A stretch of 64,000 nt of DNA from Bacteroidota bacterium. GTDB lineage: Bacteria; Bacteroidota; Ignavibacteria; UBA10030; BY39. Location: contig JAUXOG010000043.1 in NCBI GenBank assembly GCA_030682385.1, positions 34,473 to 98,472 on the forward strand, in the 5' to 3' direction. The notes under the pieces were generated by a model that had not been told where the DNA came from, made no database searches, and worked only from the letters and a program-made list of their open reading frames with translations. Below, piece after piece: positions 16,134 to 31,859 of the stretch. The number at the start of each line of letters is the position of its first letter. The first letter of the stretch is position 1. The position numbers and the translations under genes are program-made.

Positions 16134-16162
16134 TTTTCAATCTCCAAATATTGTTTAATTCG

Positions 16163-16200
16163 ACCTCCGGAATCTCAAAATTTCGGAGGTGTTTATTTTT
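16163..16200 (+). terminator. Putative intrinsic terminator
   Basis: ACCTCCG(G)AA...TTTCGGAGGT hairpin followed by a T-rich tail, 30 nt after the stop codon. Confidence 0.65.
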
Positions 16201-16201
16201 C

Positions 16202-16230
16202 TTGACTTAATCGTAACATAAATTTATATT
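16202..16230 (+). promoter_or_regulatory. sigma70-like promoter
   Basis: TTGACT-N17-TATATT upstream of the CBS gene; the same pattern recurs at 17355, 30525 (minus), 39333 and 53256. Confidence 0.6.
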
Positions 16231-16270
16231 CATACTATCGAATGTGTGAAATTAAAAAAAGGAACCTGTT

Positions 16271-16717
16271 ATGAATGCCAAAAAAATATTGGAATTAAAG
16301 GACCATAAAATCTATCAAATCAGGGAGGAGGCAGTTGTTTTTGAAGCGATAGAAGAATTGACTAAAAATAAAGTCGGGTTGCTGATTGTTAAGAATTCGA
16401 GCGGCGATATTTCGGGTGTCCTCTCAGAGCGCGACATCATACGAAAATGTGTTTCTCAAAAAAAGGATCCGCAGCAACTTAGAGTTAGTGAAATAATGAC
16501 TCCGCGCGAAAAAATAGTTGTCGCAGGAGAAGAAGATGATATTCAAAGTTTGATGAATACAATGAATGAAAAAAGGATCAGGCACCTCCCGGTATTCAGA
16601 GGCAAAGAAATGACGGGAGTTGTATCAATCGGTGACATCATAAAAAATATGCTCGAGATAAAGGATTACGAAATTAAAACATTGATAGAGTATATTTCAG
16701 GAAAATATCCGAGATAA
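16271..16717 (+). CDS. CBS-domain pair protein
   Basis: GVLSERDIIRK, VSEIMT, RIRHLPV and GVVSIGDIIK. Confidence 0.92.
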   Translation: MNAKKILELKDHKIYQIREEAVVFEAIEELTKNKVGLLIVKNSSGDISGVLSERDIIRKCVSQKKDPQQLRVSEIMTPREKIVVAGEEDDIQSLMNTMNEKRIRHLPVFRGKEMTGVVSIGDIIKNMLEIKDYEIKTLIEYISGKYPR

Positions 16718-16723
16718 AAATTA

Positions 16724-17341
16724 TTGGGTAAGAGTAAAAGAGTTTTCTCTTCAATCGTAGGCATCGACTTAGCCGGAAGTCCTAAGCGGAACACGGGTAT
16801 TTGTTTACTGAAAGGGAAAACCGTAGATAAGTATGCTACTGTGTATTCAGATTCAGAAATAATTTCTTTTGTGGAAGAAGCTAAGCCAATGCTTGTAGCA
16901 ATAGATGCACCCTTAAATCTACCACCAGGACGAAAAAATATTGACGACAGGAACGGCGAGCATTTCCGTCCGTGCGATAGGGAGTTGTTGAAACGCGGTA
17001 TCAGGTTCTTTCCGATTACACTTGGTCCAATGCGTTCTCTGACTGTCCGTGGGATTAAACTGAAAAAAATTTTGAAACGTAAAGGTTATGAGGTAATAGA
17101 AATTTACCCCGGTGCCGCTCAGGATGTTTGGGGTATTCCAAGAAAACAAAAAGGACTTTCAAAACTCAGAAAAGGTTTAGAAAAGCTTGGCTTGAAAGGG
17201 TTAAACAACAAGATGAACGGCGATGAACTTGACGCTATTACAGGGGCATTGACCGGCAAATTGTTTCTGCAGGGAAAAGCTGAAGTTTTAGGAAATTGCA
17301 AAGGAGGGGCAATAATAGACCCCAAAAACATAAAGTTATAA
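16724..17341 (+). CDS. DUF429-family protein (predicted RNase H-like fold)
   Basis: GIDLAG, AIDAPL, IEIYPGA and DELDAI motifs. Confidence 0.8.
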   Translation: MGKSKRVFSSIVGIDLAGSPKRNTGICLLKGKTVDKYATVYSDSEIISFVEEAKPMLVAIDAPLNLPPGRKNIDDRNGEHFRPCDRELLKRGIRFFPITLGPMRSLTVRGIKLKKILKRKGYEVIEIYPGAAQDVWGIPRKQKGLSKLRKGLEKLGLKGLNNKMNGDELDAITGALTGKLFLQGKAEVLGNCKGGAIIDPKNIKL

Positions 17342-17354
17342 GTAGCCCGAATTG

Positions 17355-17383
17355 TTGATTTCTTCAAAACAACTTTTTATATT
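17355..17383 (+). promoter_or_regulatory. sigma70-like promoter (Pc-like) upstream of the attI-like site and YaaC cassette
   Basis: TTGATT-N17-TATATT. Confidence 0.55.
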
Positions 17384-17436
17384 CACACTGTATCAATTCG
17401 GGAATAAATGGTAGTATTTATATATAGATAGAAGTT

Positions 17437-17457
17437 CAGTATAAATAATAGTTAGCT
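17437..17457 (+). other. attI-like recombination site A
   Basis: CAGTATAAATAATAGTT is 16/17 identical to the site heading the 27-30 kb array. The following GTTAGCTAGC is complementary (9/10) to GCTGGCTAAC just after the YaaC stop. Confidence 0.65.
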
Positions 17458-17485
17458 AGCATTATTCAATATTAATATCGTTTCT

Positions 17486-18496
17486 ATGGGAATTGGATTA
17501 AAATATCAAGGTTCTTTTCAAACTATAGGAATTAAATATCCAAGCGAAAATCCCTTGTCTGAGCTTTGGTCTCGAATTGATCAACTCGGTTCTTCAGCTT
17601 TTTTGCATAATTCTATACGTAAGTTAACATCAGATGAAGAATTTGAGAAACTCATTGAATATTCGTCTTTAAGGATCCGTCAAGGAGTCCAGTTTCGTGA
17701 AGCTTCAAGTGGATCAAGGCAATTAACTTCACCTCTCACCTTGTATTATTCATACTTAAATTTGACTCGCGCTATTCTTGCCTTAAAGACTAGTTGCATT
17801 CCTTCCAAAGGACATGGGCTGAAATTAGTGGAATCAAATAGTCTCCTACAATGTGCTGCAAAAACGGGAGAAGGTACTTTTCAAGAATATCTCAAGACTT
17901 TGGGTGTTGATCTCCAAAATAATACAACCTTCAGTTTGCAATATGTGCTTTCCCACATTGTTGAATTCACAAATGACAAGGCAATAGACCGAATGCTTGT
18001 GATACCTCCTTGTGCAATTTCTATTTATGTGGATGCTGAAATAGATGGTCCGGTTCTTTTGCGCTTTCCACCAGCCCTGAAAGAATTTAGAAATGATTGG
18101 TCGATAGAATTTCCACATCTAAAAGGAATATGCTCTTTAGCTTCCGAAGGAAATGTTTTATTGGTTAATCAAGAGTTTACGAATGATAATTCATATTATG
18201 AAATATCGAAATTCTGCTCTGATCATTTATTGCCAAGTCTTACAATTCAAGAAATACCAACTTGGTATTTATTAAGAAATATAGATGATAAAAAAGTATT
18301 GCCACGCACTGCTTATTATTTTATCGCAAGTTTTATTCTTGGTAGTCTCGTGCGATATCAGCCAGAATCACTTCAGGATGCAATGGATGTTAATTCTGAA
18401 ATTAATTGGCTTATTAGACGTTTTATTTCTTATAGCGAAAGATTCTATCCTCAACTGATGTTATGCTGGCTCTATGGTAAACAAATATATTTTTAA
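17486..18496 (+). CDS. YaaC-like protein carried as an apparent gene cassette
   Basis: PLTLYYSYLNL, HGL and LGSLVRYQP motifs typical of the YaaC family; cassette-type ends. Confidence 0.75.
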   Translation: MGIGLKYQGSFQTIGIKYPSENPLSELWSRIDQLGSSAFLHNSIRKLTSDEEFEKLIEYSSLRIRQGVQFREASSGSRQLTSPLTLYYSYLNLTRAILALKTSCIPSKGHGLKLVESNSLLQCAAKTGEGTFQEYLKTLGVDLQNNTTFSLQYVLSHIVEFTNDKAIDRMLVIPPCAISIYVDAEIDGPVLLRFPPALKEFRNDWSIEFPHLKGICSLASEGNVLLVNQEFTNDNSYYEISKFCSDHLLPSLTIQEIPTWYLLRNIDDKKVLPRTAYYFIASFILGSLVRYQPESLQDAMDVNSEINWLIRRFISYSERFYPQLMLCWLYGKQIYF

Positions 18497-18498
18497 GT

Positions 18499-18525
18499 GC
18501 TGGCTAACCAGACGCTAGCTGACAG
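18499..18525 (+). mobile_element. Truncated attC (left arm only)
   Basis: GGCTAAC-CAGACGCTAGCTGAC resembles ACCTAAC-CAGTCGCTCAAGCAGAC of the attC at 28770 (minus). No right arm was found. Confidence 0.6.
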
Positions 18526-18644
18526 CAGCGAAACAGGTTTGTAAAAAGTCTGTTTGTAAATTAAAAAGGACAATAACGACTAAAGCGACTTTTAACTGTC
18601 CTTACTGTCGTTTAAGTCCTACAGAATATCATAGGTACGGCAAT

Positions 18645-19223
18645 ATGGGTGAGAAGCAATACAATAAAGATGGATTTATTCCGCAGCATGGCGGCTACCA
18701 AAAATTGCTTTCATACAAGAAAGCCGAAATAATCTATGACGGCACTGTATATTTTTGCAAAAGGTTTTTTGAAAAAAGAGACCGCACTATAGGCCAAATG
18801 GTGCAGGCGGCTCGTAGTGGTAAACAAAATATCGCAGAAGCAAGTATGGGATCAGGCACTTCCAAAGAAGCCGAAATTAAACTAACAAATGTAGCACGAG
18901 CAAGTCTTGAAGAATTGTTAATCGACTATAGAGATTTTCTTCGAACGAGAGGTTTAAAAGAATGGGAAAAAGCCCACCCTTATGTTGCCCGATTACGCGA
19001 ACTTAATAAAGACCCAAACGGAAACTACGAAACATTCCGTAAGGGCATCGAAAACAAAGACCCCGAAATTTGCGCTAATGTAATTATGGGTTTGATAAAA
19101 GTAGCTTCTTTTTTGTTAGCCCGACAAATAAAGCACTTAGAGGAAGAATTTCTCAAAGAAGGAGATTTACGAGAGAGAATGACTCGCGCGAGACTTAAAG
19201 AAATTAAAAAAGGACAGAAATGA
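18645..19223 (+). CDS. Four-helix-bundle protein with suffix domain (23S rRNA IVS/Avd-like fold)
   Basis: HGGYQKL, RTIGQMVQAARSGKQNIAEAS, NVARASLEELL.DY.DFL and F..EG.LRERM. Confidence 0.88.
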   Translation: MGEKQYNKDGFIPQHGGYQKLLSYKKAEIIYDGTVYFCKRFFEKRDRTIGQMVQAARSGKQNIAEASMGSGTSKEAEIKLTNVARASLEELLIDYRDFLRTRGLKEWEKAHPYVARLRELNKDPNGNYETFRKGIENKDPEICANVIMGLIKVASFLLARQIKHLEEEFLKEGDLRERMTRARLKEIKKGQK

Positions 19224-19358
19224 TTTAAACGATTTTTTAAAAGTCATTGCCCTCCTTATAGTCATTTAAAACCAGATAATTATCACAAGGGCAAGAATGC
19301 AGGAAATAGAAAAAGTGAATATCATCGAAGGCAAAAAGTAATGCGGCTAAAGCATTTA

Positions 19359-20720
19359 TTATTCTTTCCTCTCCATCCCGTACTTTTTCATTTTAGTATA
19401 AAGATTACTTCTCTCGATATCCATCGCTTCGGCGGTTTTGCTTATATTCCAATTGTGAATTTCGAGCATTCGCTTTATAAAAGCAGCTTCCGATCTGTCC
19501 TTAAATTCTTGATATGTTTTGCTCGTTGCAATTATGTCGTCTGTGGCAGTTCCTTTTGTTAATCCCGTCGGCTCAAGCATTTCAACTTCGACCGTGTTGC
19601 CTGGAGTAAGAATGATAAGTCGCTCAACAATATTTCTTAGTTCGCGAATGTTACCACTGTATTCAAGCCCTTTCAAGTAATTCAATGCCCGCTCGGAAAA
19701 TTTTTTTGGCGTGATTCCGTACCGGGTACATATATCATCTACAAATGATTTTGTTAAAACCGGAATATCATCTCTTCGCTCGCGTAAAGGAGGAACATGT
19801 ATCGGAATAACATTCAGACGGTGGTATAAGTCTTCTCTGAAATTGCCTTTCTTAATTTCCTCAATCAAATTTTTATTTGTTGCTACAATTACTCGAACGT
19901 CAACAGAAATTAATCTATTGCCGCCGACTCTCTCAATCTTTCCTTCTTCGAGTACGCGTAAAACTTTTGCTTGGGCAGCTAAACTCATGTCGCCGATTTC
20001 ATCGAGGAAAATTGTGCCGCCGTCGGCTTGCTCGAATTTACCAATCCGCTGAGCAGTTGCACCGGTGAAAGAACCCTTTTCGTGTCCGAACAATTCCGAT
20101 TCAATCAAATCGTGAGGAATAGCCGCACAGTTTACTTCGACCATTGTTTTTGCGGAACGCTTGCTAAAACGATGGATTGCTTTGGCTACTAATTCTTTGC
20201 CGGTTCCGTTTTCGCCGGTTATCAGGACTCGTGTGTCGGTCGGAGCTATTCGCTCAATCAGCGATAATATCTCTTTAAGCTTCTGGCTCTCTCCCAGAAT
20301 ATTATCTTTACCTTCAAGTTTCTGACGGATAGTTTCTATTTCGGCGGTTAATATTTTATGATCAAGAGCGTTACGAAGTGTAACAAGCAATTTATCTCTA
20401 TCGAGTGGTTTGGTTAAAAAATCGAAGGCGCCTAACTTTGTTGCTTCGACCGCAGTTTCGATTGTGCCGTGACCGGATATCATTATTATGGGCAAATCGG
20501 TATGCCGGCTTTTTATAGTTTGTAATACTTCGATGCCATCCATCCCCGGCATTTTTACATCGAGAAGAACTGCATCAATGCGATTTTCAGGATTATCTAA
20601 TATTGCAAATCCTTTCGGCCCATCTTCAGCGAGTTCTACTTCATACTTTTCGTAATTTAGTATCATTTTAACTGCGTCGCGGATACTCTTCTCATCGTCA
20701 ATTATTAAGATTGTTTTCAT
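19359..20720 (-). CDS. Sigma-54-interacting response regulator (NtrX/NtrC family)
   Basis: Receiver domain (LLDVKMPGMDG), AAA+ domain (GENGTGKE, ESELFGHEKGSFTGA, FLDEIG) and Fis-type HTH. Confidence 0.95.
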   Translation of the reverse strand: MKTILIIDDEKSIRDAVKMILNYEKYEVELAEDGPKGFAILDNPENRIDAVLLDVKMPGMDGIEVLQTIKSRHTDLPIIMISGHGTIETAVEATKLGAFDFLTKPLDRDKLLVTLRNALDHKILTAEIETIRQKLEGKDNILGESQKLKEILSLIERIAPTDTRVLITGENGTGKELVAKAIHRFSKRSAKTMVEVNCAAIPHDLIESELFGHEKGSFTGATAQRIGKFEQADGGTIFLDEIGDMSLAAQAKVLRVLEEGKIERVGGNRLISVDVRVIVATNKNLIEEIKKGNFREDLYHRLNVIPIHVPPLRERRDDIPVLTKSFVDDICTRYGITPKKFSERALNYLKGLEYSGNIRELRNIVERLIILTPGNTVEVEMLEPTGLTKGTATDDIIATSKTYQEFKDRSEAAFIKRMLEIHNWNISKTAEAMDIERSNLYTKMKKYGMERKE

Positions 20721-20787
20721 AATTAATTAGTCGTTCGTTAATCTTTTTTTGTAAATTATCATTTGAACTTATGCTATTTACTACCTA

Positions 20788-21486
20788 CTACTTACCGTTT
20801 AAAACATCCGATGGTTTTGCATTCTTGTTTTTCATCAGCAACAAGCCAAACTTTTGTCCATCTTTATTTGCTTTCATATCGCGTTCATCGTAATTACCAT
20901 CCTTAATATATCTATCTTCAATCTTTTCTACAAACAAGGAATACCTTTCAGCTAATCCCTCCGATTCAAAAGCATAAATTAAAAACGCCGAACCGAATAT
21001 GTGCTGTAATTTATCTTTGTCGCCATACGGGTACGAGGGAGAGTTGTTGTAAAAATGTGTAGGAAGATTAGACGTTCGCTTTCGAAAATCTTCTTTTGTT
21101 TCATTTGTTAAAGGAATATAAAGATTGATCAGCGGGATTTTTATACCGAGTGTATAATGGTCGAGTGTAGCGATTGTACAAATTAGAAGAGATATTCCGG
21201 TATTGCCGCGTGTAAGTTCTTTAGCTTTTTGATAAACCGAATCAACGGCCGCCAAATCACCATTCTGTTTCTTGAAGTTTAAGAATTCATCATTCCGAAT
21301 AAATGATTTTAATTCACTGATATTCTGTAAAAGAAAAGGAGGGAAAAGTGTTACCATCGCCTCGAACGCGGAATAATCAGAACTACTTGAATCCTGCATT
21401 TGAGTTGAAGCAAAATTTATTTGTGGATAACTCAACGCGACTAAAAAAAAGAGAATATAACTCCTGTTAAGCAAATACCGTCTCAT
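20788..21486 (-). CDS. Hypothetical exported protein
   Basis: 232 aa ORF with an N-terminal hydrophobic segment and a DKDKLQHIFGS motif; co-oriented with its neighbours. Confidence 0.75.
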   Translation of the reverse strand: MRRYLLNRSYILFFLVALSYPQINFASTQMQDSSSSDYSAFEAMVTLFPPFLLQNISELKSFIRNDEFLNFKKQNGDLAAVDSVYQKAKELTRGNTGISLLICTIATLDHYTLGIKIPLINLYIPLTNETKEDFRKRTSNLPTHFYNNSPSYPYGDKDKLQHIFGSAFLIYAFESEGLAERYSLFVEKIEDRYIKDGNYDERDMKANKDGQKFGLLLMKNKNAKPSDVLNGK

Positions 21487-21489
21487 AAA

Positions 21490-21685
21490 AACTCAATTCC
21501 TAAATCTCGACGAGTCGGGTCGTCGACCGAATACCTGCCCGCCGCTTCGCTTTGGCAGGCGGGTCGAAACTCGAAACAATTCATAAACACGAATTTCAAA
21601 AAATACATTCTCCAATTCTCCATTATGCCATTAATCCATTTGTTCATTGAGTCAATGAATAAATCTTCCAATGATCCAATCTTCC
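21490..21685. repeat. Intergenic cluster of GC-rich mini-palindromes and imperfect 8-mer tandem repeats
   Basis: CGACGAGTCGGGTCGTCG, CCTGCCCGCC...GGCAGGCGGG, and a (TCCAWTNN)n run at about 21611-21683. Confidence 0.7.
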
Positions 21686-21687
21686 GT

Positions 21688-23334
21688 TTATGTCTGAATT
21701 ACTCCCGGATTGAAGCGTGGAATATTCGGATTATTAGCTGCAATCCCAAGCGTGTAAGAAATAATTTTACGAGTATCGATAGGATCGATGATATCATCGA
21801 CCCATAATCGGGCTGCGGCATAGAGCGGGTCGAGTTGGCGATTATAGCGTTCCTGGATTTCGGAAAGCATCTTCTGCTTTTCCTCCTCGGAAATTTTATC
21901 TTTGTTACCACCTAAACGGATTGTCAGGAGTGTCTCGCTTGATTGTTTTCCTCCCATTACAGCGATTTGAGCAGTGGGCCAAGCAAAAATAAAACGAGGG
22001 TCGTAAGCTTTACCGCACATCGCATAATTTCCGGCGCCGTAGCTATTCCCGGTTATAAAAGTAATTTTCGGCACTACACTGTTAGCAACTGCATTTACCA
22101 TTTTAGCACCATCTTTAATAATGCCGCCTTGTTCTGAACGGGTCCCGACCATAAATCCCGTAACATCCTGAAAGAAAATAAGCGGAATATTTTTTTGATT
22201 GCAATTCATTATGAACCGTGTGCCTTTATCGGCGCTGTCGCTGTAAATTACACCACCAAATTGCATCTCGCCTTTTTTGGTTTTTACAAGTGCACGTTGA
22301 TTTGCCACGATTCCGACCGCCCAACCATCTACGCGAGCGTAACCTGTGATTATCGTTTTGCCGATGCCGGCTTTGTATTCATCGAACGAATCATCATCCA
22401 CGATACGCGATAAAATCTGGTAAGTGTCGTATGGTTTTGTCCGGTCTTCAGGAAAAATACCATAAATTTCTGACGGGTCGAGATTCGGCAGCTTCGATGC
22501 GATCCTATCAAATCCGGCTTTGGGTGTCTGTCCAAGTTTACTAATGATATTGCGGATTGTTTCCAAGCAAACTTCATCGTTCGGCATTTTATAATCAGTA
22601 ACGCCGCTTATTTCGCAGTGCATAGATGCGCCGCCTAATTCTTCGATGTCGGCATCTTCGCCGATGGCTGCTTTGACGAGAGCTGGTCCTGCTAAGAATA
22701 CGCTTCCGGTTTTTTCTACAATCATGGCTTCGTCGCTCATTATCGGAAGATAAGCACCGCCTGCAACGCAAGGTCCCATGATTGCTGAGATTTGGACAAT
22801 TCCCATCGACGACATAACGGCATTATTGCGGAATATTCTTCCGAAGTGTTCTTTATCCGGAAAAATTTCATCCTGCAGAGGGAGAAAAACACCAGCCGAG
22901 TCAACGAGGTAAACTATAGGTAAGCGGTTTTCTATTGATATTTCCTGCGCGCGAAGATTCTTTTTGCATGTAATCGGAAACCAGGCGCCGGCTTTCACTG
23001 TCGCATCGTTAGCAACGATTACAACATCTCTGCCGTGAATTTTTCCGATACCGAAAATTGTTCCTGATGCGGGTGCGCCGCCATATTCGTTATACATATC
23101 GTAAGCGGCAAATAATCCTATTTCTAAAAAGTAACTGCCGGGGTCGATTAGTTTTTCGATTCTTTCGCGGGCTGTAAGTTTATTCCGTTTGTGGTGTTTT
23201 TCAATATTTTCTTTCCCACCGCCGAGTTTGATGATATCGGCTTTCGCTTTTATCTTCCTGACTAAATTTTTGTTAAAGTCATCGTTGCGGTTGAAGCCGT
23301 TGTCGTGTGTTATTTCAGTGCCTAATTTTGCCAT
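21688..23334 (-). CDS. Acyl-CoA carboxylase carboxyltransferase subunit (methylcrotonyl-CoA carboxylase beta-like)
   Basis: KLTARERIEKLID, ANDATVKAG, DSAGVFLP, GPCVAGGAY and SYGAGNYAMCG. Confidence 0.93.
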   Translation of the reverse strand: MAKLGTEITHDNGFNRNDDFNKNLVRKIKAKADIIKLGGGKENIEKHHKRNKLTARERIEKLIDPGSYFLEIGLFAAYDMYNEYGGAPASGTIFGIGKIHGRDVVIVANDATVKAGAWFPITCKKNLRAQEISIENRLPIVYLVDSAGVFLPLQDEIFPDKEHFGRIFRNNAVMSSMGIVQISAIMGPCVAGGAYLPIMSDEAMIVEKTGSVFLAGPALVKAAIGEDADIEELGGASMHCEISGVTDYKMPNDEVCLETIRNIISKLGQTPKAGFDRIASKLPNLDPSEIYGIFPEDRTKPYDTYQILSRIVDDDSFDEYKAGIGKTIITGYARVDGWAVGIVANQRALVKTKKGEMQFGGVIYSDSADKGTRFIMNCNQKNIPLIFFQDVTGFMVGTRSEQGGIIKDGAKMVNAVANSVVPKITFITGNSYGAGNYAMCGKAYDPRFIFAWPTAQIAVMGGKQSSETLLTIRLGGNKDKISEEEKQKMLSEIQERYNRQLDPLYAAARLWVDDIIDPIDTRKIISYTLGIAANNPNIPRFNPGVIQT

Positions 23335-23352
23335 AAGATATTTGCTTTTTTT

Positions 23353-23958
23353 TTATTTTAAAAGTTTCATTGATTTTGATTTTAACAAAGAAGTCATTTG
23401 GATAATTGCGATGCCATTCAATTTAGATAATCTTTCTGATTGAGTTAAAGCTTGGCGAATAAAAATCGAATTAAGACTTTCAATAGCAAGTGTACGTTGT
23501 AGATTCCAACTTAATGATTGAGTTTTAGCTTCTTCGAGCTTTAGCCGTTGGAATTCTTTTAATAGATAAAGCTTAAACTCTGCACTTACCCAAGCTGCAA
23601 ATTCAAAAGCGATATCTTGATGAGCGAAAGTACCACCGGTATTGCCGGCTCTGGAAATAATACCGATGGCATTTGTTGCCTCAATCCATTTTGAAGGCGA
23701 AAGTACAAACGAATTACTACCGGCTTCGTACATAAAGGAGTCGAATTCGACCCCTTTGAAATTTGGATTATGAAGCTTTTCCCATAATCCTAAAAACTCA
23801 ATAGTCGTTCTTGACCTCATCCAGTTTTTTACCACATCTTTCGGTTCATTTTTATTTTTATAACGAGCAATATCTGTTAGCGAAATGTAGTCTTCGCTTT
23901 TCTGACTAGTGAGCGATATTTCAGTTCCTTTTACATTTAATTTAGTATTCTTTTTCAT
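23353..23958 (-). CDS. KilA-N domain protein, apparently with an internal deletion
   Basis: DYISLTDIA, NWMRSRTTIEFLGLWE and GGTFAHQDIAFEFAAWVSAEFKLYL. The C-terminal part seems to jump from WNLQRTLA directly to IESLNS. Confidence 0.85.
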   Translation of the reverse strand: MKKNTKLNVKGTEISLTSQKSEDYISLTDIARYKNKNEPKDVVKNWMRSRTTIEFLGLWEKLHNPNFKGVEFDSFMYEAGSNSFVLSPSKWIEATNAIGIISRAGNTGGTFAHQDIAFEFAAWVSAEFKLYLLKEFQRLKLEEAKTQSLSWNLQRTLAIESLNSIFIRQALTQSERLSKLNGIAIIQMTSLLKSKSMKLLK

Positions 23959-23969
23959 AATGATATCTA

Positions 23970-24043
23970 ACTAAATTATTGTTAAGTCCTCGGTGCGGTT
24001 GAAGCCGTTGTCGTGTGTTATTTCAGATCCAAGTTTTGCCATA
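23970..24043 (-). repeat. Degenerate copy of the first ~24 codons of the carboxyltransferase gene
   Basis: Aligns to 23261-23335, including the identical stretch TGCGGTTGAAGCCGTTGTCGTGTGTTATTTCAG. Confidence 0.92.
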
Positions 24044-24078
24044 GGAATATTTTAGATTGATGATTTGGGATTTATGAA

Positions 24079-24370
24079 TTATGAATTAATTAATAATTCT
24101 TTACCTTTAAGTGTGGTTATATATTTTTGATTTCTACTCCTGGGTTTTTCAGGATTTAATAGAGCAAGTAATTTTATTTTTAACAATGGGTTAATATATT
24201 TGTTTCTGAATTTAGTTCGATTTTTCCACTTAAGTTGAACCATTAGCTCGAGTAATGATTTTGGTTTATTACAAAAAGCTAATATTATCGTTGCCTCTTT
24301 CACATTAAATTGTGGTTTAAATGTTTGTCGGTCCCAACTTAGTCCCATCTTAGTCCCAACTTGGTCCCAT
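24079..24370 (-). pseudogene. C-terminal HTH fragment of a Fic/ATP-binding-type protein
   Basis: NRTKFRNKYINPLL...PEKPRSRNQKY, preceded by 12-bp linker repeats (TGGGACYAAGWT). No N-terminal domain. Confidence 0.65.
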
Positions 24371-24451
24371 TTCTGTGAAATATGCAGAATGAATTATAGA
24401 AAATCAAACAATTCGATATTCAATCTTGAACGAACAATGAATAATGAATGC

Positions 24452-24777
24452 TTAAATTATTTCAATAGCTCTTTCGCTCTTTAATACAGATGAAAGCATA
24501 GCAACACCTTGCTCTGTAAACGCATAAGGAGGGTACCGTAATCCCTTTTGATCCGATTTGGACATCACAGTTTGTGATCTCCAAATTTTAAATTCTTTTT
24601 TTGAAAGCTGAAACATAAAATCTTCAGGGAATCTTCTGATATTCCTTCTTACGGCTTGTTTTAGTGCACGCGTTTCTACGTTGTAAAGAACAGCCAAATC
24701 TCTATCGAGAATTACTTTCTTATTACCAGAATTTTATTTAATACGCTTTCTGAAGGTACTAATGCTTTGTGTGTCAT
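24452..24777 (-). pseudogene. ORF6N-domain gene, frameshifted and 3'-truncated
   Basis: Paralog of 25372-25701 with a 7-nt deletion near 24720. Retains [20 protein letters not shown] and [16 protein letters not shown]. Confidence 0.88.
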
Positions 24778-24806
24778 AGATAAAGTTTTGTTTCTAGAAT
24801 AACGAT

Positions 24807-25199
24807 TTAAGTTTTATCTATCTGTTGTAATTTTTTTATTTCACTTTCAATTTTTTCAAATGCGCTATTCGGATTACCAAGCAATTCTTCATTTGTAATT
24901 CTTATAAACTTAATCCCAAATTCTTCAATATATTCTTGACGATCTTTGTCGTAATCTTTTTGTCCCGGTAAATCGTGAACTTCACCATCAATCTCAACAG
25001 CTAGTTTAATTTCGGGGGCATAGAAGTCAATTACAAATTTATCTACGGAATACTGCCTTCTGAATTTAACGCCGAGTAATTGTCTATTGCGCAGATGAAT
25101 CCAAATAATATTTTCACAAAAAGTTTGGTTTTTACGGAGTTGGCGACGTTTTCCTTTTTCTTCTTGATTGTTAAAATGTTTTGTCATGGTCCCATTCAT
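24807..25199 (-). CDS. DUF559 (Vsr-like endonuclease domain) protein
   Basis: RQLRKNQT, LRNRQL.GVKFRRQY, FVIDFY and EIDGEVH. Confidence 0.9.
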   Translation of the reverse strand: MNGTMTKHFNNQEEKGKRRQLRKNQTFCENIIWIHLRNRQLLGVKFRRQYSVDKFVIDFYAPEIKLAVEIDGEVHDLPGQKDYDKDRQEYIEEFGIKFIRITNEELLGNPNSAFEKIESEIKKLQQIDKT

Positions 25200-25200
25200 T

Positions 25201-25254
25201 CGACCTCACTCCTACCCCTCTCCTTTGAAAGGAGAGGGACTTAGGGTGAGGTTG
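25201..25254. repeat. Nested palindrome immediately upstream of the DUF559 gene
   Basis: CGACCTCAC...CCCTCTCCTTT-G-AAAGGAGAGGG...GTGAGGTTG. Confidence 0.85.
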
Positions 25255-25371
25255 CCTCATTGTCGGTGATTTATGAATTATGATTTTGTGAAATATGTAA
25301 AATGAATTATAGAAAACCAAACACTTCGAAATTCAATATTCAATCTTGGAAAAACAATGAATAATGAATGT

Positions 25372-25701
25372 TTAAATTACTTCAATAGCTCGTTCACTCT
25401 TTGGAACGGAAGAGAGAATTGCAACGCCTTGTTCTGTAAATGCTATTGGGTTCGCACCACCAAAAAAACTTTTTGATAGTATCACATTTTGTGATACCAT
25501 TTTATTAATCTCCTTCCCAGATAAAATGAACATGAAGTCGGTAGGAAATCTTCTATTATTTCTACGAACAGCTTGCTTTAAGGCGCGGGTTTCTACGTTG
25601 TAAAGAACAGCCAAATCTCTATCGAGAATTACTTTCTGATTTCTTATTATAAGAATTTTATTTATTACGCTTTCTGAAGGTATAATCGATTTTTCTGCCA
25701 T
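25372..25701 (-). CDS. ORF6N-domain protein, 3'-truncated
   Basis: [30 protein letters not shown] and [12 protein letters not shown]. Ends at the same point as its paralog. Confidence 0.85.
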
Positions 25702-25930
25702 TAGTTTTGCTTTTTGCTAATATGTTTCTTAAAAGGACATTAAGGACAGCAACGACTTTGTATTGGCAGAAGGCAATAGAAATAATTAGCCAGCCACCAT
25801 TGCTAAACTGTACTAAAGTAAATTGAAAACTAAATTTTAACTATCTGCTACAATATATAATTTTTGTTGGAAATATGAAAGACGGTAAGAACCCTTCCTA
25901 ATTACTTTACTGGCGATCTACTAACTCATG

Positions 25931-26339
25931 TTACGCAAAATAGTGTTCGGGGTTAAAAATTCGAAGACCTAAATCTGAATCTCGAAACAAATTCGAATTC
26001 CTAAAATCTATTTTCTTAATATTTGCCAATGCAAGATATGCCCCATCACAAATGGCAGCAGCTTCTTCGTACGAAATATTTGCCGGCTTTATTGCGATTG
26101 AACCTGTTTCGGGAATACAAATGTATTCCGCGTGCGCTCCAAAACGCGAAGTTGTTAATCCAAAAACCCGGTCGCCGTTTTTAAATGTTTTAACATTTTT
26201 TCCAACTGATACAATCTCACCAGCCAACTCACTCCCTAAAATCTTTCTTTTGGGTTTAAAGAGACCATTGATTAATCTGATGATAAGAGGATGTTCGATT
26301 TACTGTTGTTGCGTGTATTGTATAAACAATTGCCTTCAT
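25931..26339 (-). pseudogene. MDR-family NAD(P)-dependent alcohol dehydrogenase remnant
   Basis: MKAIVYT|IHATTVNRT from the ATG at 26339, then a frameshift into GLFKPKRKILGSELAGEIVSVG...GAHAEYICI...EEAAA; truncated at a repeat tract near 26010. Confidence 0.85.
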
Positions 26340-26518
26340 AAGTATTCCTTCAAGATTGCTTTGATTCGAGCGTCTTCAAATAAAAAATGCGCTATTCCTT
26401 TACCATCAAAGACAAACGCCCCGCCGTCCTCTACGCTTACACCTGCACTGCCCAAAGCCTCACCCATTTCGGCTAAAGCCCCTGGACGATTTTCCAAACG
26501 TACGGCTAAATCTCTCAT
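26336..26518 (-). pseudogene. ACT-domain protein fragment
   Basis: LENRPGALAEMGEALG.AGVSVE ACT motif; only 60 aa. Confidence 0.7.
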
Positions 26519-26537
26519 TCTATTTTCTCCTAAGTTT

Positions 26538-26999
26538 TTAAATTTGCTGAATGGTTATTTTTGTTTTTACAGAGCTTGCAATAAAACATTTCTCGTGTGC
26601 CAAATGATGTAATTCATCCACCTGTTCTCGTGATAGGGTAGTCTTACTGTTAAAAATCACCTTCGGTTTCAAGGTAACTTTCGTCATTGCTAACTTCCCA
26701 TCTTCATTTTTCCCTAAAATTCCTTCGGCACTATCTTCATAACTCTCGACAATGTAGTTTTTCTCGGCTGCAATGGACAAAAACCATAACATATGACAAC
26801 TTGAGAGCGAAGCAATAAATGCCTCCTCTGGGTCTACGGCAGATGCATTGGACATTGGAAGTGGTACAACGTGTGGCGAGGAAGATGCGGCTAACTCAAT
26901 TCCGCCATCAAATATCCAAGTGTGAAATCTGCTGTATTTATTATCAACAAAAACTTCGTCTAAATTCTTTTCCCAAAAAACCGTAACGTTATACGACAT
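26538..26999 (-). CDS. OsmC/Ohr-family protein
   Basis: DPEEAFIASLSSCHMLWFL and AHEKCFIASSV (both conserved Cys). Confidence 0.93.
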   Translation of the reverse strand: MSYNVTVFWEKNLDEVFVDNKYSRFHTWIFDGGIELAASSSPHVVPLPMSNASAVDPEEAFIASLSSCHMLWFLSIAAEKNYIVESYEDSAEGILGKNEDGKLAMTKVTLKPKVIFNSKTTLSREQVDELHHLAHEKCFIASSVKTKITIQQI

Positions 27000-27044
27000 C
27001 TTTATTCCTCAAGTTTGAATAATATAATTGTTGTGCCATAAAGC

Positions 27045-27120
27045 GGCTAACGGCGTTGCCGATAAACAGCTTTTCCCGATTTCTTTTATTGTGGGCGTCC
27101 GCTTGATTGGCGGGTTAGGC
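27045..27120 (-). mobile_element. attC site 3 (76 bp), ending the CBASS cassette
   Basis: On the minus strand: R'' GCCTAAC (contains the cap15 TAA stop), CCGCCAATCAAGCGGAC, ..., R' GTTAGCC; imperfect inverted repeat. Confidence 0.82.
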
Positions 27121-27705
27121 AACCTTTATTTTATTTAATTTAATTTCTCCAATGGTTTTTCGTGAAGTCCAATATTCACCTTCCATACTAGTTACGTTGA
27201 AACCAGAAAACTGTAATAGAGTTGTACCATAATGAATTTGACTTCTCTCTCTAATACTAGTTTTAGGTATGTTTATATATGAATAATATAGTTGTTGCAA
27301 TCCACGCTCTTTATCAATATCAAAAGATGCCGCAACACTAAAACTATTGCTTTCATTTGATTGTATTTTAATTTGTGTATTAAAAAATGTCTGTGTGATC
27401 TGAATTGAAATGGAGATTGGATTTTGTATTTTATCTTGCCAAGTTGAGATTATTATCCCCTCCCAATTACCAGACAAATCTGGGAAAGGAACAAGCCAAG
27501 GATAAAAAATCTTTATTTTCCAAAACCATTTAACAAATAAGGTCCATATTATTAGGTTAATTGAAATAGTTGTCGAAATGTCTTTAAAAGCAGTATCAAA
27601 TTTAATAGATGATAAATTCTGATTTAGAAGAAATAATATGATGTAAGTTCCAAAAGCTAATCCTAATATAGTAGAACCAAACGCTCTAAGATTATACTTT
27701 ACCAT
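27115..27705 (-). CDS. cap15: CBASS effector Cap15 (SMODS-associated 2TM, beta-strand-rich domain)
   Basis: Two N-terminal TM segments; PDLSGNWEG, ITQTF, YYSYINIP, IHYGT and GEYWTSRKTIG; 1 nt downstream of the CD-NTase. Confidence 0.9.
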   Translation of the reverse strand: MVKYNLRAFGSTILGLAFGTYIILFLLNQNLSSIKFDTAFKDISTTISINLIIWTLFVKWFWKIKIFYPWLVPFPDLSGNWEGIIISTWQDKIQNPISISIQITQTFFNTQIKIQSNESNSFSVAASFDIDKERGLQQLYYSYINIPKTSIRERSQIHYGTTLLQFSGFNVTSMEGEYWTSRKTIGEIKLNKIKVA

Positions 27706-27706
27706 A

Positions 27707-28597
27707 CTAAAACTCCAAATAATTATAAGAAAGTATTACAAAATTATTAACATCTTCTTTAGTCCATTTTCTACCAGAATGAAATAAATATAAGAGTTCA
27801 GAAACTTCGCCCCATTTTTTGCATTTATCTTGTTCTTCTGTTGATCCATATAAATAGACAAGTGAAGATTTTACTCTTTCTGTCCAACTATCATTATCAT
27901 TAAAAATAGTATCAGGAATATTCCACATCAGACTTTCAATTAAAAATGAAGTGATATGGTCGTTTGTGAAAGAACCATCTTCAACCATTTTATTTTTTAA
28001 TTTCTTGAAAACTCTAACTAATCTTTTAAACCTTTTGCTAGTATTCGAATTTTTAGTTTTACTATTTTCGAGGTGTTGATTTGGAAAATTAACAACCATC
28101 TTATAATCATCGCTAAAGAATTTTGTGCCCTCGACATATGAACCATCAATAGAATATCGATGATAATTAAAGGTGGGTACAACATCAGCTTGAATCCTAT
28201 TAGTATTACCTTTAACTGTGATACATTTATTTTTCCGTTCAATAGAATCACGGCCAAATTTATTGACTAAAGCATTTTCAACAGAATCCTTAAACGTCGA
28301 AAACTTATAATCACTTGGCGAGTTAAGCTGGAAATCACCTCGATTTTTTCCTTCAGGTAAATCGAAGAAAAAAATATCCATTAATCGTACATTAATATCA
28401 ACGTCACTATCTAACCTAATATTAGTATCGTTCGCATAAGATCCTTGACCAAATATTTGTATTTCTTTTTCTTTTAATACAGAATCGGCCTTTATAGCTT
28501 CACTTATCATTTTTTGTGCATTGGCTAATTTTGTCTCTTCAGTATCACTTGGAGGTTTACGCCAATTATTAAATGTTTCTTCAGATATTTTACCCAT
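27707..28597 (-). CDS. cGAS/DncV-like nucleotidyltransferase (CD-NTase, CdnE-like)
   Basis: QGSYANDTNIRLDSDVDINV (GS...DxD), ADVVP, NFPNQH, FKRLVRVFKKL and SFLIESLMWNIP. Confidence 0.93.
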   Translation of the reverse strand: MGKISEETFNNWRKPPSDTEETKLANAQKMISEAIKADSVLKEKEIQIFGQGSYANDTNIRLDSDVDINVRLMDIFFFDLPEGKNRGDFQLNSPSDYKFSTFKDSVENALVNKFGRDSIERKNKCITVKGNTNRIQADVVPTFNYHRYSIDGSYVEGTKFFSDDYKMVVNFPNQHLENSKTKNSNTSKRFKRLVRVFKKLKNKMVEDGSFTNDHITSFLIESLMWNIPDTIFNDNDSWTERVKSSLVYLYGSTEEQDKCKKWGEVSELLYLFHSGRKWTKEDVNNFVILSYNYLEF

Positions 28598-28607
28598 AAT
28601 ATTAGTT

Positions 28608-28770
28608 GCCTAACGGACTGGAGCTAAGCTGCGTTGCAACGTTCCAGCGGGTTGATTAAAGTTTTAAATTTAAAATGCTGTTTCATAACGTAAGTTGTAT
28701 TTAGAAATCTCAACACTCAAAACTTTTGCGCGTCGGCGGTTGCAACGTCTGCTTGAGCGACTGGTTAGGT
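28608..28770 (-). mobile_element. attC site 2 (163 bp)
   Basis: On the minus strand: ACCTAAC CAGTCGCTCAAGCAGACGTTGCAAC ... GTTGCAACGCAGCTTAGCTCCAGTCC GTTAGGC. R''/R' fit consensus and the arms pair with extrahelical bases. Confidence 0.9.
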
Positions 28771-28774
28771 TGTT

Positions 28775-29383
28775 TTAGTAATTGAGAGGACCATACTGTG
28801 GATCATATATACCATAACCGAATACTTTGTTTTCTCTTAAATAAAATTCGACTTGATATTTTTTAAAAGAATAAACTCGAACTGTTCCATCTTTGGATTT
28901 TGTAATATCCGAAGGCTCACCAAAATAATCTTTTATACTTTTAAGATCATAACTGTGAAATTGACGATTAAGCAACTTTGGAGAGTCATAATCCCAAACC
29001 GAACAAGTATATATTATGGCGGATACTTTATCATTTTTGAAATACACTTCATAAAATATTTTTCGCCACGTATATTCTGTCTTATCATAAAACCAACTTG
29101 AGTTTATTTCATCATAAAAATGGTTGTCACCTTTGATAAACTTTACGTCCTCTTTTGAAGAGCCTAAGTTTATATCCCAAAATGTTGAAGCGAGCGTTGG
29201 GTATTGGAAATTTAAACTGGGAAGTATAAATTTATATATACCAAATCCTGATAAACCTAAAACGATAACAATAATTATCCATTTTGCTATTTTCTTCCAA
29301 TTCCATCGGTCTTTTGTAGAATTAAAAAGTAACACCAAACCGATAATTAAAGCTGACAAAAATATTGATAGACCAAGATTCAT
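28775..29383 (-). CDS. Hypothetical membrane-anchored protein (cassette 2)
   Basis: 202 aa with two N-terminal TM segments and an aromatic-rich soluble domain; bounded by attC sites. Confidence 0.8.
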   Translation of the reverse strand: MNLGLSIFLSALIIGLVLLFNSTKDRWNWKKIAKWIIIVIVLGLSGFGIYKFILPSLNFQYPTLASTFWDINLGSSKEDVKFIKGDNHFYDEINSSWFYDKTEYTWRKIFYEVYFKNDKVSAIIYTCSVWDYDSPKLLNRQFHSYDLKSIKDYFGEPSDITKSKDGTVRVYSFKKYQVEFYLRENKVFGYGIYDPQYGPLNY

Positions 29384-29404
29384 AAATTCCTCTTGTTCAA
29401 AACA

Positions 29405-29629
29405 ACCTAACGGCGTTGCGCCTAACCCGCCGCCCCAAGCAAGGAAGCCAAGCTAAAACGGAATGCCAAAGATTAAACAAACTGCACTTAACTTGCATCA
29501 GCAAGTGCAGTTTGTAAGTTAATTAATTAGAATGAACACTTAGAACAAAATGCCGAACAAAAACCAAACGCCAAAAATTATAAATTCGCCAAACCAAAAT
29601 GGCGGTCGGCGTTGAGGCGCTGGTTATAT
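29405..29629 (-). mobile_element. attC site 1 (225 bp, unusually long)
   Basis: On the minus strand: ATATAAC CAGCGCCTCAACGCCGACCGCC ... GGCGGCGGGTTAGGCGCAACGCC GTTAGGT. Long central spacer with an internal hairpin at 29477-29515. Confidence 0.82.
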
Positions 29630-29635
29630 GCGTTT

Positions 29636-30331
29636 TTATAATAGCCTTACGAACTCATTTGGTAAAGCAACTAATACCCATTCCGTAGAAATTTTATTAT
29701 CATTCAATACTTCAAATGTCCTAACACCGTTATCTAAGGAAACCAATTTTAAAATTATCTGATTCCATCCTTGCTTAAATATAACTTTGTTATACTGCGT
29801 AATAATTGTTCTTTCGTATTGAGGATACATTTGGTCTTTTAACAATACGGTCCATTTACCAGTTACTTCAGTCGATCGGTCGAAATAGTAATAATGAATT
29901 TGATAGTCACCAACAATCGAATTTATATCAAAACCATTTGTACTACCACATTGGATTGGGAAAGAAATTCTTTCATAATGTTCTAATGTAAGTGAAATAA
30001 ATTTTGCAGTAGTATCACTAAATTGAATACTATCTTTCATCTCAAAATAAATGCTATCCTCTCTTTCAACCTTTAAGTAATTATGAAGCACTTCACTTGG
30101 TGGATTTGGCAAATTTATTTTGAAACTTCCATTACTTAAAATCTTAGTATGTGCTAATAAATGTTCAACAGAGTCAATTGAGACTCTCCAGAGAATGCTA
30201 TCTCCATTTGCAGGATTCCAATTAATAAATTGACCGTTAATTTCATTTGGAGAATTGCTAATAGGATCTACCGACTTTTCCGTACATCCTATTAAAACGA
30301 CAAGAAGAATAAAAACTATTATTTTTTTCAT
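29636..30331 (-). CDS. Hypothetical lipoprotein (cassette 1)
   Basis: Likely start MKKIIVFILLVVLIG-C (lipobox) at 30331, inside the cassette boundary at 30348. Confidence 0.8.
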   Translation of the reverse strand: MKKIIVFILLVVLIGCTEKSVDPISNSPNEINGQFINWNPANGDSILWRVSIDSVEHLLAHTKILSNGSFKINLPNPPSEVLHNYLKVEREDSIYFEMKDSIQFSDTTAKFISLTLEHYERISFPIQCGSTNGFDINSIVGDYQIHYYYFDRSTEVTGKWTVLLKDQMYPQYERTIITQYNKVIFKQGWNQIILKLVSLDNGVRTFEVLNDNKISTEWVLVALPNEFVRLL

Positions 30332-30341
30332 AACATTAAGC

Positions 30342-30362
30342 ATATAACTATTAATTATACTG
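30342..30362 (-). other. attI-like recombination site B heading the cassette array
   Basis: CAGTATAATTAATAGTTATAT on the minus strand: an L-like GTATAAT, a 5-nt spacer, then the GTT core. No attC-type hairpin upstream; matches site A. Confidence 0.68.
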
Positions 30363-30524
30363 CCATATAGCGTGCTATCAAACAGGCAGCGTGTGTGATA
30401 GATTCCATATGTTTTATTGTTTTTATTTTGTTTTCCATAATTTGAGCGGGCTATCACTCATATCATTATAGGATGTTATCCAGCGGGCTTTTTACACCCA
30501 TCACTATCTTTAAAATTTGAATAT

Positions 30525-30553
30525 AATATAGAATTAAAATAATTCAAACTCAA
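30525..30553 (-). promoter_or_regulatory. sigma70-like Pc-type promoter facing the cassette array
   Basis: TTGAGT-N17-TATATT on the minus strand. Confidence 0.55.
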
Positions 30554-30657
30554 ATTAATAATCCATTACTCCATCCGCCTTAGGCGGATTCAATCTTTCA
30601 GTCTTTCAATCTTTCCATCACTCCAGAAGCAAAATGTTCTCTCAACTACTCATCTAC

Positions 30658-31821
30658 TTATTTTAGCAACTCTCTCGATATCACCAACTTCTGTATTTCA
30701 GAAGTCCCTTCGCCGATTGTTACAAGTTTAACATCGCGGTAAAATTTTTCGACAGGGTAGTCTTTTATAAATCCGTAACCACCGTGAATCTGGATCGCTT
30801 CGTTCGTTACCATAACTGCAACCTCAGACGCATAATACTTTGCCATTGAGGATTCTTTTATAACTTCTTCGCCTTTGTTTTTCAAATAAGCAGCTTTATA
30901 AGTTAATAGTCGAGCTGCCTCAATTTGTGTTACCATCTCGGAAAGTTTCCATTGAATCGCTTGAAACTCTGAAATCGGTTTTCCGAATTGCTGTCGTTCT
31001 TTCGAGTATTTCAAACTTGCCTCGAATGCGCCTTGTGCAATTCCAAGTGCGTTTGCGGCGATGCTGATTCGTCCGCCATCTAAGATAGTTAAAGCTTGAT
31101 GGAATCCTTTGCCTTCTTCGCCGATTAAGTTCTCTATCGGAATTGCACAATTGTCGAATGCAATCGCAGCCGTATCGCTCGAGCGCATACCTAATTTATT
31201 CTCTTTTTTGCTTACGATAAATCCGGGCGTATCGTTTTCCACGATGAATGCAGAGATGCCCTTCTTACCTTTCGACTTGTCGGTTATCGCAAGCACCACG
31301 GTTACTTTTCCAACTGAACCATGAGTGATAAAATTTTTACTGCCGTTGAGTATGTAAGAATTTCCGTTGCGCATTGCTGTCGTTTTCATACTTCCGGCGT
31401 CGCTGCCTGATGAAGGTTCGGTAAGTGCCCAGGCGCCTATCTTTTTACCGGTTGTTAAATCGGGTAAATATTTTTTCTTTTGTTGTTCGTTGCCGAATGT
31501 GTAAATATGGTTTGTGCATAAGCTGTTGTGTGCGGCAATTACTAATCCCATTGATGGATCGGCTTTGGAAATTTCCTCAATAATGGTAACATATTCAAGA
31601 TAGCTGAAACCCGCACCACCATATTCTTCAGGAAATATAACACCCAAGAATCCTAATTCGCTCATCTTCCGGACGATATCGAAAGGAAACTCCTGCGATT
31701 CGTCGTACTTCATAATAACGGGTTTAATTTCTTTTTCTCCAAAATCACGTGCAAGCTGTTGAACCATTCTCTGGTTTTCAGTCATCTCGAATGTCGGTAT
31801 TGTTTGTTCGGTTGAATTCAT
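30658..31821 (-). CDS. Acyl-CoA dehydrogenase (short/branched-chain type)
   Basis: [45 protein letters not shown] and IGEGTSEIQ. Confidence 0.96.
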
Positions 31822-31859
31822 ACGCGTTATTCCTTTTAGTATAGTTTGAATTTATATGA

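Follow-up and report, generated by a model that had tools for sequence, protein, structure and literature searches.

Two attI-like sites in an Ignavibacteria genome as probable relics of chromosomal integrons

How do arrays of gene cassettes come to be headed by an integron attachment site (attI) where no integron integrase gene (intI) is found? This question is raised by a stretch of 64,000 nucleotides (nt) from contig JAUXOG010000043.1 of a Bacteroidota bacterium of the class Ignavibacteria, in the following called the window, in which two cassette arrays face each other. Each is headed by a short sequence, CAGTATAAATAATAGTT at 17437-17453 on the plus strand (left site) and CAGTATAATTAATAGTT at 30362-30346 on the minus strand (right site). 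A first-pass annotation had described these 17-mers as attI-like docking sites of a possible dispersed system served by a distant integrase (IntI); re-reading the sequence confirmed their positions and their identity at 16 of 17 letters. Both are very probably attI sites of chromosomal Ignavibacteria-type integrons whose integrase genes are gone from this genome. The observations behind this reading are the identity of the core with attI sites adjacent to intI, the boundaries of the cassettes, remnants of intI and the lack of an intact intI in the assembly. On this reading the arrays are what is left of an already known system, with some uncommon traits, rather than a system of a new kind.

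The source genome (G000; 3.38 Mb in 140 contigs, completeness 99.69%, with the window on the 100-kb contig C130) was compared with ten other genomes of its family, one of which (G007) belongs to the same genus. Integrase genes were regarded as intact if their products scored above the cut-off of the TIGR02249 profile (265 bits). Only two of these 11 genomes, G007 and G004, contain an intact intI. On contig C115 of G007, the stop codon of intI (430 bits) lies 130 nt before GTATAATTAATA and GTT, on the same strand as the following cassette, and on contig C40 of G004 intI (429.6 bits) is followed by GTATAAGTAATA and GTT. When one genome per species was scanned with the IntI proteins of G007 and G004, 12 loci emerged, from metagenome-assembled genomes (MAGs) titled Ignavibacteriaceae, Ignavibacteriales, Melioribacter and, in one case, Parachlamydiaceae. 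Eight of these loci (L045-L052, of which L045 is apparently identical with the G004 C40 record) include a full-length intI with downstream sequence, and in all eight the core (up to three mismatches) follows 104-152 nt after the IntI match, with co-oriented cassettes. In Ignavibacteria integrons this core appears to be the genuine crossover region of attI, and the label attI-like was well chosen. While G000 itself offers no intact intI whose adjacent attI could be compared, the genes of its relatives are followed by the same core; in the window, the core follows a remnant of 15 intI codons.

The 15-nt core (GTATAAWTAATA, then GTT) is present in exactly three copies in G000, namely at the two window sites and at C56:4081-4095, and each copy stands directly before a cassette. 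For the exact 15-mer (GTATAAWTAATAGTT) a first-order Markov model predicts 0.043 genomic copies, and permuted words of the same composition had a mean of 0.146 matches, with 0.16% of 5000 words reaching three. Allowing two mismatches, three matches were found in the window (0.76 expected), and the exact 15-mer also occurs in four of the ten other family genomes. A degenerate core pattern gave 28 matches in the 11 genomes and 16 for the reversed pattern, so not all of the former are real; a reversed control pattern of the core gave five matches in the same set. The cassette-heading position of the copies is more telling than their number. In this respect the scan bore out the earlier annotation, as all three exact copies head cassettes; its view that the motif goes beyond short secondary sites also holds, a GWT-type site being far less specific. 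The invariant part of attI consists of the 3′ arm of a stem, then ATAAnTAATA-G and TT, and IntI would be expected to cut at G|TT. An Rfam search of positions 16000-32000 of the window gave no match at E-values up to 1.

The cassette boundaries agree with such a crossover. The complementary flanks previously noted are present on both sides: the start of the left cassette (GTTAGCTAGC) is complementary to its end (GCTGGCTAAC) at 9 of 10 positions and the start of the first right cassette (GTTATATGC) to its end (GCATATAAC) at 9 of 9, and on C56 GTTATGTTTC is likewise complementary to GAAACATAAC. In a collection of 31 core-type sites from family genomes and MAG loci, the reverse complement of the first 10 bases (at most one mismatch, ending in AAC) was found downstream of 15 sites, six times exactly and including all four sites of G000, compared to about one of the 31 sites estimated for chance; many of the other 16 sites have less than 1.5 kb of downstream sequence, some less than 400 nt. 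Furthermore, the first right cassette (R1) is present in contigs from two other metagenomes, with four mismatches in each (over 524 and 734 nt), and these contigs diverge from the window at 30348 and 30344, i.e., at the crossover. Two contigs of one MAG (L046 and L048) carry intact integrons with different IntI lineages and pre-attI regions but the same first cassette: 118 of 118 nt are identical after GTT and only 12 of 40 before the core. The identical repeat may also explain why these two contigs end there. Contig joints that resemble differently filled sites (27117>30344, 27117>29408 and 29609>30343) have sides of 20-24 letters and 90% likeness and were not used as evidence.

The earlier claim of multiple attI platforms in the genome holds for G000, which has four: the two on C130, the one on C56 and a fourth at C22:48950-48964 (GTATAAGCAATA, then GTT), upstream of which C22:48748-48816 encodes the last 23 residues of a type-a IntI (82.6% identity). 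No distant IntI that could serve them was found in the assembly. All 15 TIGR02249 matches in G000 remain below 265 bits (best 239 and 196), and tblastn with the IntI proteins of two relatives returned only Xer-like genes and short 3′ remnants. A fragment at C121:8-250, considered as a piece of intI, was rejected, being 37% identical to IntI, like the Xer-like genes. The tyrosine recombinase profile PF00589 has seven matches in G000, none of them on C130, so that the reported absence of a tyrosine recombinase from the window extends to the whole contig; what had been overlooked is the 15-codon intI remnant at 30513-30466.

The two best TIGR02249 matches, C64:6508-7758 and C102:15969-17099, are Xer-like tyrosine recombinases with an N-terminal extension of about 120 residues which lack model positions 180-232. 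This is where the IntI-specific insertion lies, which near patch III marks integron integrases according to the part of PMC4889954 concerned with it. Both score just below the cut-off and could be misannotated as integron integrases.

Counted by context, there are four sites in G000, six in G010, five in G004, three each in G007 (C66, C85, C115) and G009 (C38, C140, C198), two in G005 and one in G003. Orphan sites with intI remnants are found in the window, on C22, on G004 C25 and at two loci of G010 (C23a and C9). The end points of these remnants differ, which indicates that each was once a complete integron and went through its own decay.

For the right-hand site, the reading that the first-pass annotation had cited as established applies, namely that of an integron in decay: the region of the intI promoter (P_int) and the 15 terminal intI codons are kept, and an intact integron occupies the same locus in G007. 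There, the integron follows immediately on the orthologous acyl-CoA dehydrogenase gene, in synteny with window positions 30653-33588. G001 and G002 have no integron at this place: fewer than 100 nt separate their acyl-CoA dehydrogenase gene from the carboxyltransferase gene, and the interval is empty. In G010 the same locus has a type-a attI from which intI has been deleted, with another attI at a distance of 2.6 kb beyond it, and in G004 a type-a intI remnant with its hairpin, the core being lost. Judged from these comparisons, intI seems to have been lost at least three times independently at this locus. G007 has, at C115:1440-1570 (L022), an insert of about 130 nt with inverted repeats, similar to a miniature inverted-repeat transposable element, between the terminator of the acyl-CoA dehydrogenase gene and the promoter of intI; the window contains no such insert.

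The left-hand site is a separate, always integrase-less platform. The 100 nt that precede its core form a conserved module (type c). Among 277 genomes of the order, 4 contain a 26-nt stretch of this module, AACAACTTTTTATATTCACACTGTAT, with six copies in total: once in G000, twice each in G010 and G004 and once in G050, which belongs to another family. Five copies are identical and the sixth has one mismatch. The core follows the module in four of the five other copies but not at G004 C38:2189-2214. On G004 C38 the module lies upstream of a type-b remnant and attI. At the five loci carrying the module, tblastn revealed no trace of IntI. A role of the module as intI promoter of type-b integrons was rejected, as it is also absent upstream of the 10 intI loci examined. 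In the window and on G010 C1, the module begins about 13 nt after the stop codon of the DUF429 gene (24 nt after a GTT in the last codons of the gene), which leaves no room for an intI of the type-c platforms' own. Module and core are both missing from the corresponding loci of G004 and G009; that of G009 (C184:6123-6830, L061) contains an IS200/RAYT-like transposase gene and no platform. Homologous type-c platforms differ in their first cassette, which starts with GTTAGCTAGC in the window, GTTAAGGTGC on G010 C1 and GTTAAGTGCG on G010 C23. This is the best argument for past action of an IntI encoded elsewhere, and a past use of left-type platforms by IntI in trans is plausible, though argued for rather than proved. 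The earlier description as promoter-plus-attI platforms without integrase suits the left site, where all six copies of the module lack any trace of intI, better than the right one, which is a decayed integron.

A scheme consistent with these data would be the following. In the Ignavibacteria type, intI reads towards attI and the cassettes, and IntI would join incoming cassettes at G|TT of the core. The right platform (Table 1) would have been such an integron between the acyl-CoA dehydrogenase and carboxyltransferase genes, of which an internal deletion of intI left the promoter region and the 15 terminal codons. The left platform would represent a second attI form, consisting of promoter-like module, degraded stem and core without integrase, inserted at the 3′ end of the DUF429 gene. 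Both arrays would now be frozen unless an IntI enters from outside.

Table 1. Coordinates of the two platforms and of the cassettes in the window
Feature	Position	Strand	Description
Type-c module	17355..17404	+	Upstream of left attI; promoter-like TTGATT-N17-TATATT (17355-17383) and 5′ arm ACTGTA (17387-17392) of degraded stem
Left attI core	17439..17453	+	GTATAAATAATA, then GTT; predicted crossover between G17451 and T17452
Cassette L1	17452..18610	+	YaaC-like open reading frame (ORF) 17486-18496; attC 18501-18616 (R′′ GGCTAAC, R′ GTTTAAG)
Cassette L2	18611..19300	+	ORF 18645-19223 (weak 23S_rRNA_IVP match, below Pfam cut-off); degenerate attC start TTTAAAC 19224-19230; distal end uncertain
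Cassette R4	25786..27050	-	OsmC-like ORF 26999-26538; then gene fragments and degenerate attC-like end
Cassette R3	27051..28613	-	Two-gene CBASS (cyclic-oligonucleotide-based antiphage signaling system): SMODS/CD-NTase 28597-27707, Cap15 27705-27115; attC 27120-27045
Cassette R2	28614..29410	-	Membrane protein ORF 29383-28775; attC 28771-28608, canonical attC fold; start and R′′ complementary 13/13
Cassette R1	29411..30347	-	Putative lipoprotein ORF 30331-29636 (no Pfam match); 227-nt attC 29631-29405
Right attI core	30346..30360	-	GTATAATTAATA, then GTT; predicted crossover between G30348 and T30347
Type-b pre-attI region	30361..30465	-	Hairpin 30401-30375 (CTATCACAC..GTTTGATAG) and stem CTGCC (30389-30385)/GGCAG (30364-30360)
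Type-b intI 3′-end remnant	30466..30513	-	15 codons, translating to LKIVMGVKSPLDNIL*; intact IntI ends: LKTVMGIKSPLDNIL* (L049), LKTVMGVKSPLDIIL* (L048)
Promoter-like TTGAGT-N17-TATATT	30525..30553	-	Region homologous to that directly upstream of intact G007 intI (P_int region)

Several points weigh against the reading of both sites as remains of integrons that lost their integrase. The role as attI rests on position and homology, and an intI could hide in a gap of the 140-contig assembly despite its high completeness. The left site shares only about 17-25 nt and the architecture with intI-linked attI sites, none of the six copies of the type-c module belongs to an intact integron, and the left platform may never have had an intI of its own. 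The right platform is a mosaic, with a promoter region like that of the type-a integron of G007 and an intI remnant and pre-attI region of type b, so simple deletion is not its whole history. Finally, the minimum-energy folds of three of the four window attCs (R1, R3, L1) are non-canonical and only that of R2 is canonical. For this reason the attC calls, made by R′′/R′ boxes and complementarity of the cassette ends, rest on the boundary complementarity.

A feature common to many of the sites is a stem which abuts the core. At 16 of the 31 sites a perfect stem of at least six pairs ends with its 3′ arm no more than 3 nt from where the 15-mer begins, compared to 1.76 ± 1.27 sites (maximum 6) in 300 shuffles of the upstream sequence, a count that is not to be read as a probability since the 31 sites are related to one another. 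At least eight stem sequences occur, among them ACTGCC/GGCAGT, ACTGTA/TACAGT, ACTGCA/TGCAGT, GCACCGT/ACGGTGC, GCATGT/ACATGC, CCCGCCA/TGGCGGG and CCCACC/GGTGGG, and despite this variation the adjacent ATAAnTAATA-GTT is fixed across lineages. In G000, the stem has five pairs at the right window site and 5 of 6 at the left one, where the 3′ arm TTCAGT (17435-17440) pairs with the ACTGTA of the module; C56 has none. Type-b sites contain TCTAAC, resembling an R′′ box, 6-7 nt 5′ of the stem; it is mutated to CTATCA in the right window site and absent from the left one. The geometry recalls that of attC sites, imperfect palindromes with paired R and L boxes in the order R′′-L′′...L′-R′ (described in parts of PMC3607928 and PMC4889954), and attI may thus resemble attC in shape. 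The stem could act as a DNA fold, as an RNA element or as protein half-sites. The earlier statement that the sites are not part of an attC hairpin is correct for the ordinary attCs of the arrays, but has to be modified in that the core adjoins a conserved stem.

Several attI copies have an additional short hairpin, CCCGCC..TTT..GGCGGG, whose insertion point lies precisely between ..GCAG and (G)ATAATTAATAGTT. Copies with this hairpin are G010 C23:141512 and 144129, G003 C136, G050 C204 and G004 C1 and C2, and the same CCCGCC..GGCGGG hairpin is present inside the C56 array of G000 at about 3440-3470.

These features lend some support to the idea that the motif is merely the right arm (L′-spacer-R′) of an ordinary or eroded attC: the stem abuts ATAAnTAATA-GTT far more often than in shuffled sequence, the TCTAAC of type b takes the position of R′′, and in several relatives CCCGCC..GGCGGG stands directly before (G)ATAATTAATA-GTT. 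This explanation is nevertheless unlikely. The attCs of the G000 arrays have GC-rich and variable ends before GTT (CAACGCC, CCAGTCC, ACTGTC), whereas the core is invariant over the whole class, always opens its array and is what neighbours intI; a good 5′ partner is also missing at the left site and at C56. An even smaller probability is assigned to insertion by IntI at ordinary secondary sites (attG type) whose flanks are alike by chance. Insertion into genomes at sites defined by GWT only is documented (10.1101/2022.09.11.507474, in the part dealing with attG), the region is AT-rich and the five matches of the reversed control pattern equally speak for chance. Against this stand the 15-nt identity with attI beside an intact intI, the rarity of permuted words with three genomic matches, the cassettes behind all three exact copies and the empty loci of G004, G009, G001 and G002, which are devoid of the motif. 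As the two cores are inverted and differ in one letter of 17, they might also be taken for the terminal inverted repeats of a 12.9-kb mobile element (17454-30345). This can practically be dismissed, as the sigma-54 activator and carboxyltransferase genes of the interior are syntenic with the flanks in G001, G002 and G004, which lack one or both sites, as each site is found alone elsewhere, and as a cassette with its own attC lies directly inside each core.

The most serious competitor is the working dispersed system of the first-pass annotation, in which several promoter-plus-attI platforms are maintained and filled by one IntI encoded elsewhere. The sites outnumber the intact intI genes of the family, G004 combines one intact intI with four other sites, and the type-c platforms, without room for their own intI, differ in their first cassette. 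In addition, attC clusters that lack an integron integrase (CALINs) can be mobilised in trans according to 10.1101/2025.06.18.660453 and PMC4889954, as far as their sections on this point go. However, no intact intI was found in G000 or in G010 (99% complete, six sites), both nearly complete assemblies, several orphan sites hold intI remnants with differing end points that argue for independent decay, and the cassette differences are also explicable by homologous exchange between arrays. We therefore regard a maintained dispersed system as possible but clearly less probable than the loss of the integrase genes. More tentative still, and rather doubtful at present, is the idea that the primary site of Ignavibacteria is itself an attC-like fold, with a co-varying stem and the invariant ATAAnTAATA-GTT, and that integrase-less promoter platforms spread between genomes and families and recruit cassettes via IntI in trans. 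If this were true, many CALINs would be satellite docking stations and not wreckage.

The proposed origin from integrons that lost intI fits in many respects with described systems. In chromosomal integrons of the Treponema type, intI is transcribed towards attI and the cassettes (PMC3607928, in its relevant sections). The same holds for G007, G004 and L045-L052, where intI, attI and cassettes lie on one strand, and here as there the integrons are chromosomal, sedentary and located between housekeeping genes. Unlike those described there, they belong to an Ignavibacteria lineage, have an attI core of at least 15 nt conserved across families and occur in several copies per genome. Integrons of Ignavibacteriae are only mentioned in PMC9024848, which also states that attI is poorly described outside class 1. 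With CALINs and decayed integrons (T. phagedenis, PMC3607928; Xanthomonas, 10.1101/2025.06.18.660453; PMC4889954), as characterised in the pertinent parts of these papers, the window arrays share attC boundaries, the lack of a neighbouring integrase, several loci per genome and the loss of the integrase from a locus where relatives have an integron. In contrast to the CALINs presented there, the array head is identifiable as attI and two of the four G000 arrays keep a 3′ remnant of intI, which settles the origin of these arrays. Cassettes away from an integrase are likewise known from attG insertion (10.1101/2022.09.11.507474), but the sites reported in that context have GWT only, while those described here share 15 nt and the stem with the primary site; attG-type secondary insertion is excluded for these arrays. 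Recombination-proficient delta-attI pieces of about 11 nt or more, away from a full attI, have been described for class 1 and 2 mobile integrons (PMC12901181, in the portion on such pieces) and are a precedent for the usability of core-only sites such as C56. Those pieces sit inside mobile-integron arrays of clinical bacteria, whereas the truncated sites of this study head chromosomal arrays, one form with a promoter-like module.

Integron research has yet to settle how cassette arrays without an integrase originate. In the survey that named CALINs (PMC4889954, in the sections on these clusters) intI pseudogenes were near only 15 of 279, and attI, known in few classes only, was not searchable. 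In the clade studied here the conservation of the attI core is sufficient for its use as a marker by which each array can be assigned to a cause: integrase loss for the right site and C22, and a truncated or satellite attI for the left site and C56. The core also provides substrates for asking how short an attI can be and whether a stem-bearing attI recombines as a folded single strand. New points are the class-wide core, the three to six attI-headed arrays per family genome compared to two intact intI genes in 11 genomes, the attC-like stem and an integrase-less module-plus-core platform common to different families. No description of these features was found in the literature, which does not show them to be unpublished, as a targeted search on orphan or multiple attI sites was uninformative.

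The promoter-like sequences reported upstream of both sites are present, with TTGATT-17-TATATT at 17355-17383 and TTGAGT-17-TATATT at 30553-30525. Both match at only 9 of 12 positions, though, and such matches are no commoner than in shuffled sequence (1 compared to a mean of 1.4, and 4 compared to a mean of 2.2). The best sigma-70-like match, TTGATA-16-TATAAT (11 of 12), has its -10 element TATAAT (30359-30354) inside the right core. Transcription of the cassettes might accordingly start from this element or from the promoter-like sites upstream.

The right array comprises at least four cassettes, one of them a CBASS, and the left array two. Three attCs with R′′/R′ boxes and cassette-end complementarity of 9/9, 13/13 and 10/10 were identified in the right array, one clear and one degenerate attC in the left one. 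The window thus contains at least two attC sites on one strand and, as stated, no PF00589 match on its contig, as in CALINs. Searching for 5′ arms of attC by a regular expression proved to be unspecific (16 matches and 17 on the reversed sequence). Between the arrays lie genes for a sigma-54 activator and a carboxyltransferase and an unassigned gene; CBS and DUF429 genes border the left array on the outside and the acyl-CoA dehydrogenase gene the right one. The distal limit of the right array is not fixed. Gene fragments are found beyond about 26500, and 23353-26500 contains ORF6N, DUF559, Fic-like C-terminal and KilA-N genes.

The complete two-gene CBASS forms a single integron cassette with the ends GTTAGGCAAC and GTTGCCTAAC. 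The presence of such defence genes fits with the view of chromosomal integrons as anti-phage stores, as put forward in the part of 10.1101/2024.07.02.601686 on this subject. Over 754 nt, the region of the OsmC cassette (about 26318-27071) shows 97.2% identity with this locus in G004 (C25, L058 1449-2201), a genome from a different genus, while the flanking core genes are about 85% identical, which suggests a recent cassette exchange. Distally, where the right array is decayed, each of two ORF6N genes is followed by a repeat of about 90 nt (starting with TTAAACATTCATTATTCATTG), at 25200-25375 and 24349-24455 on the minus strand.

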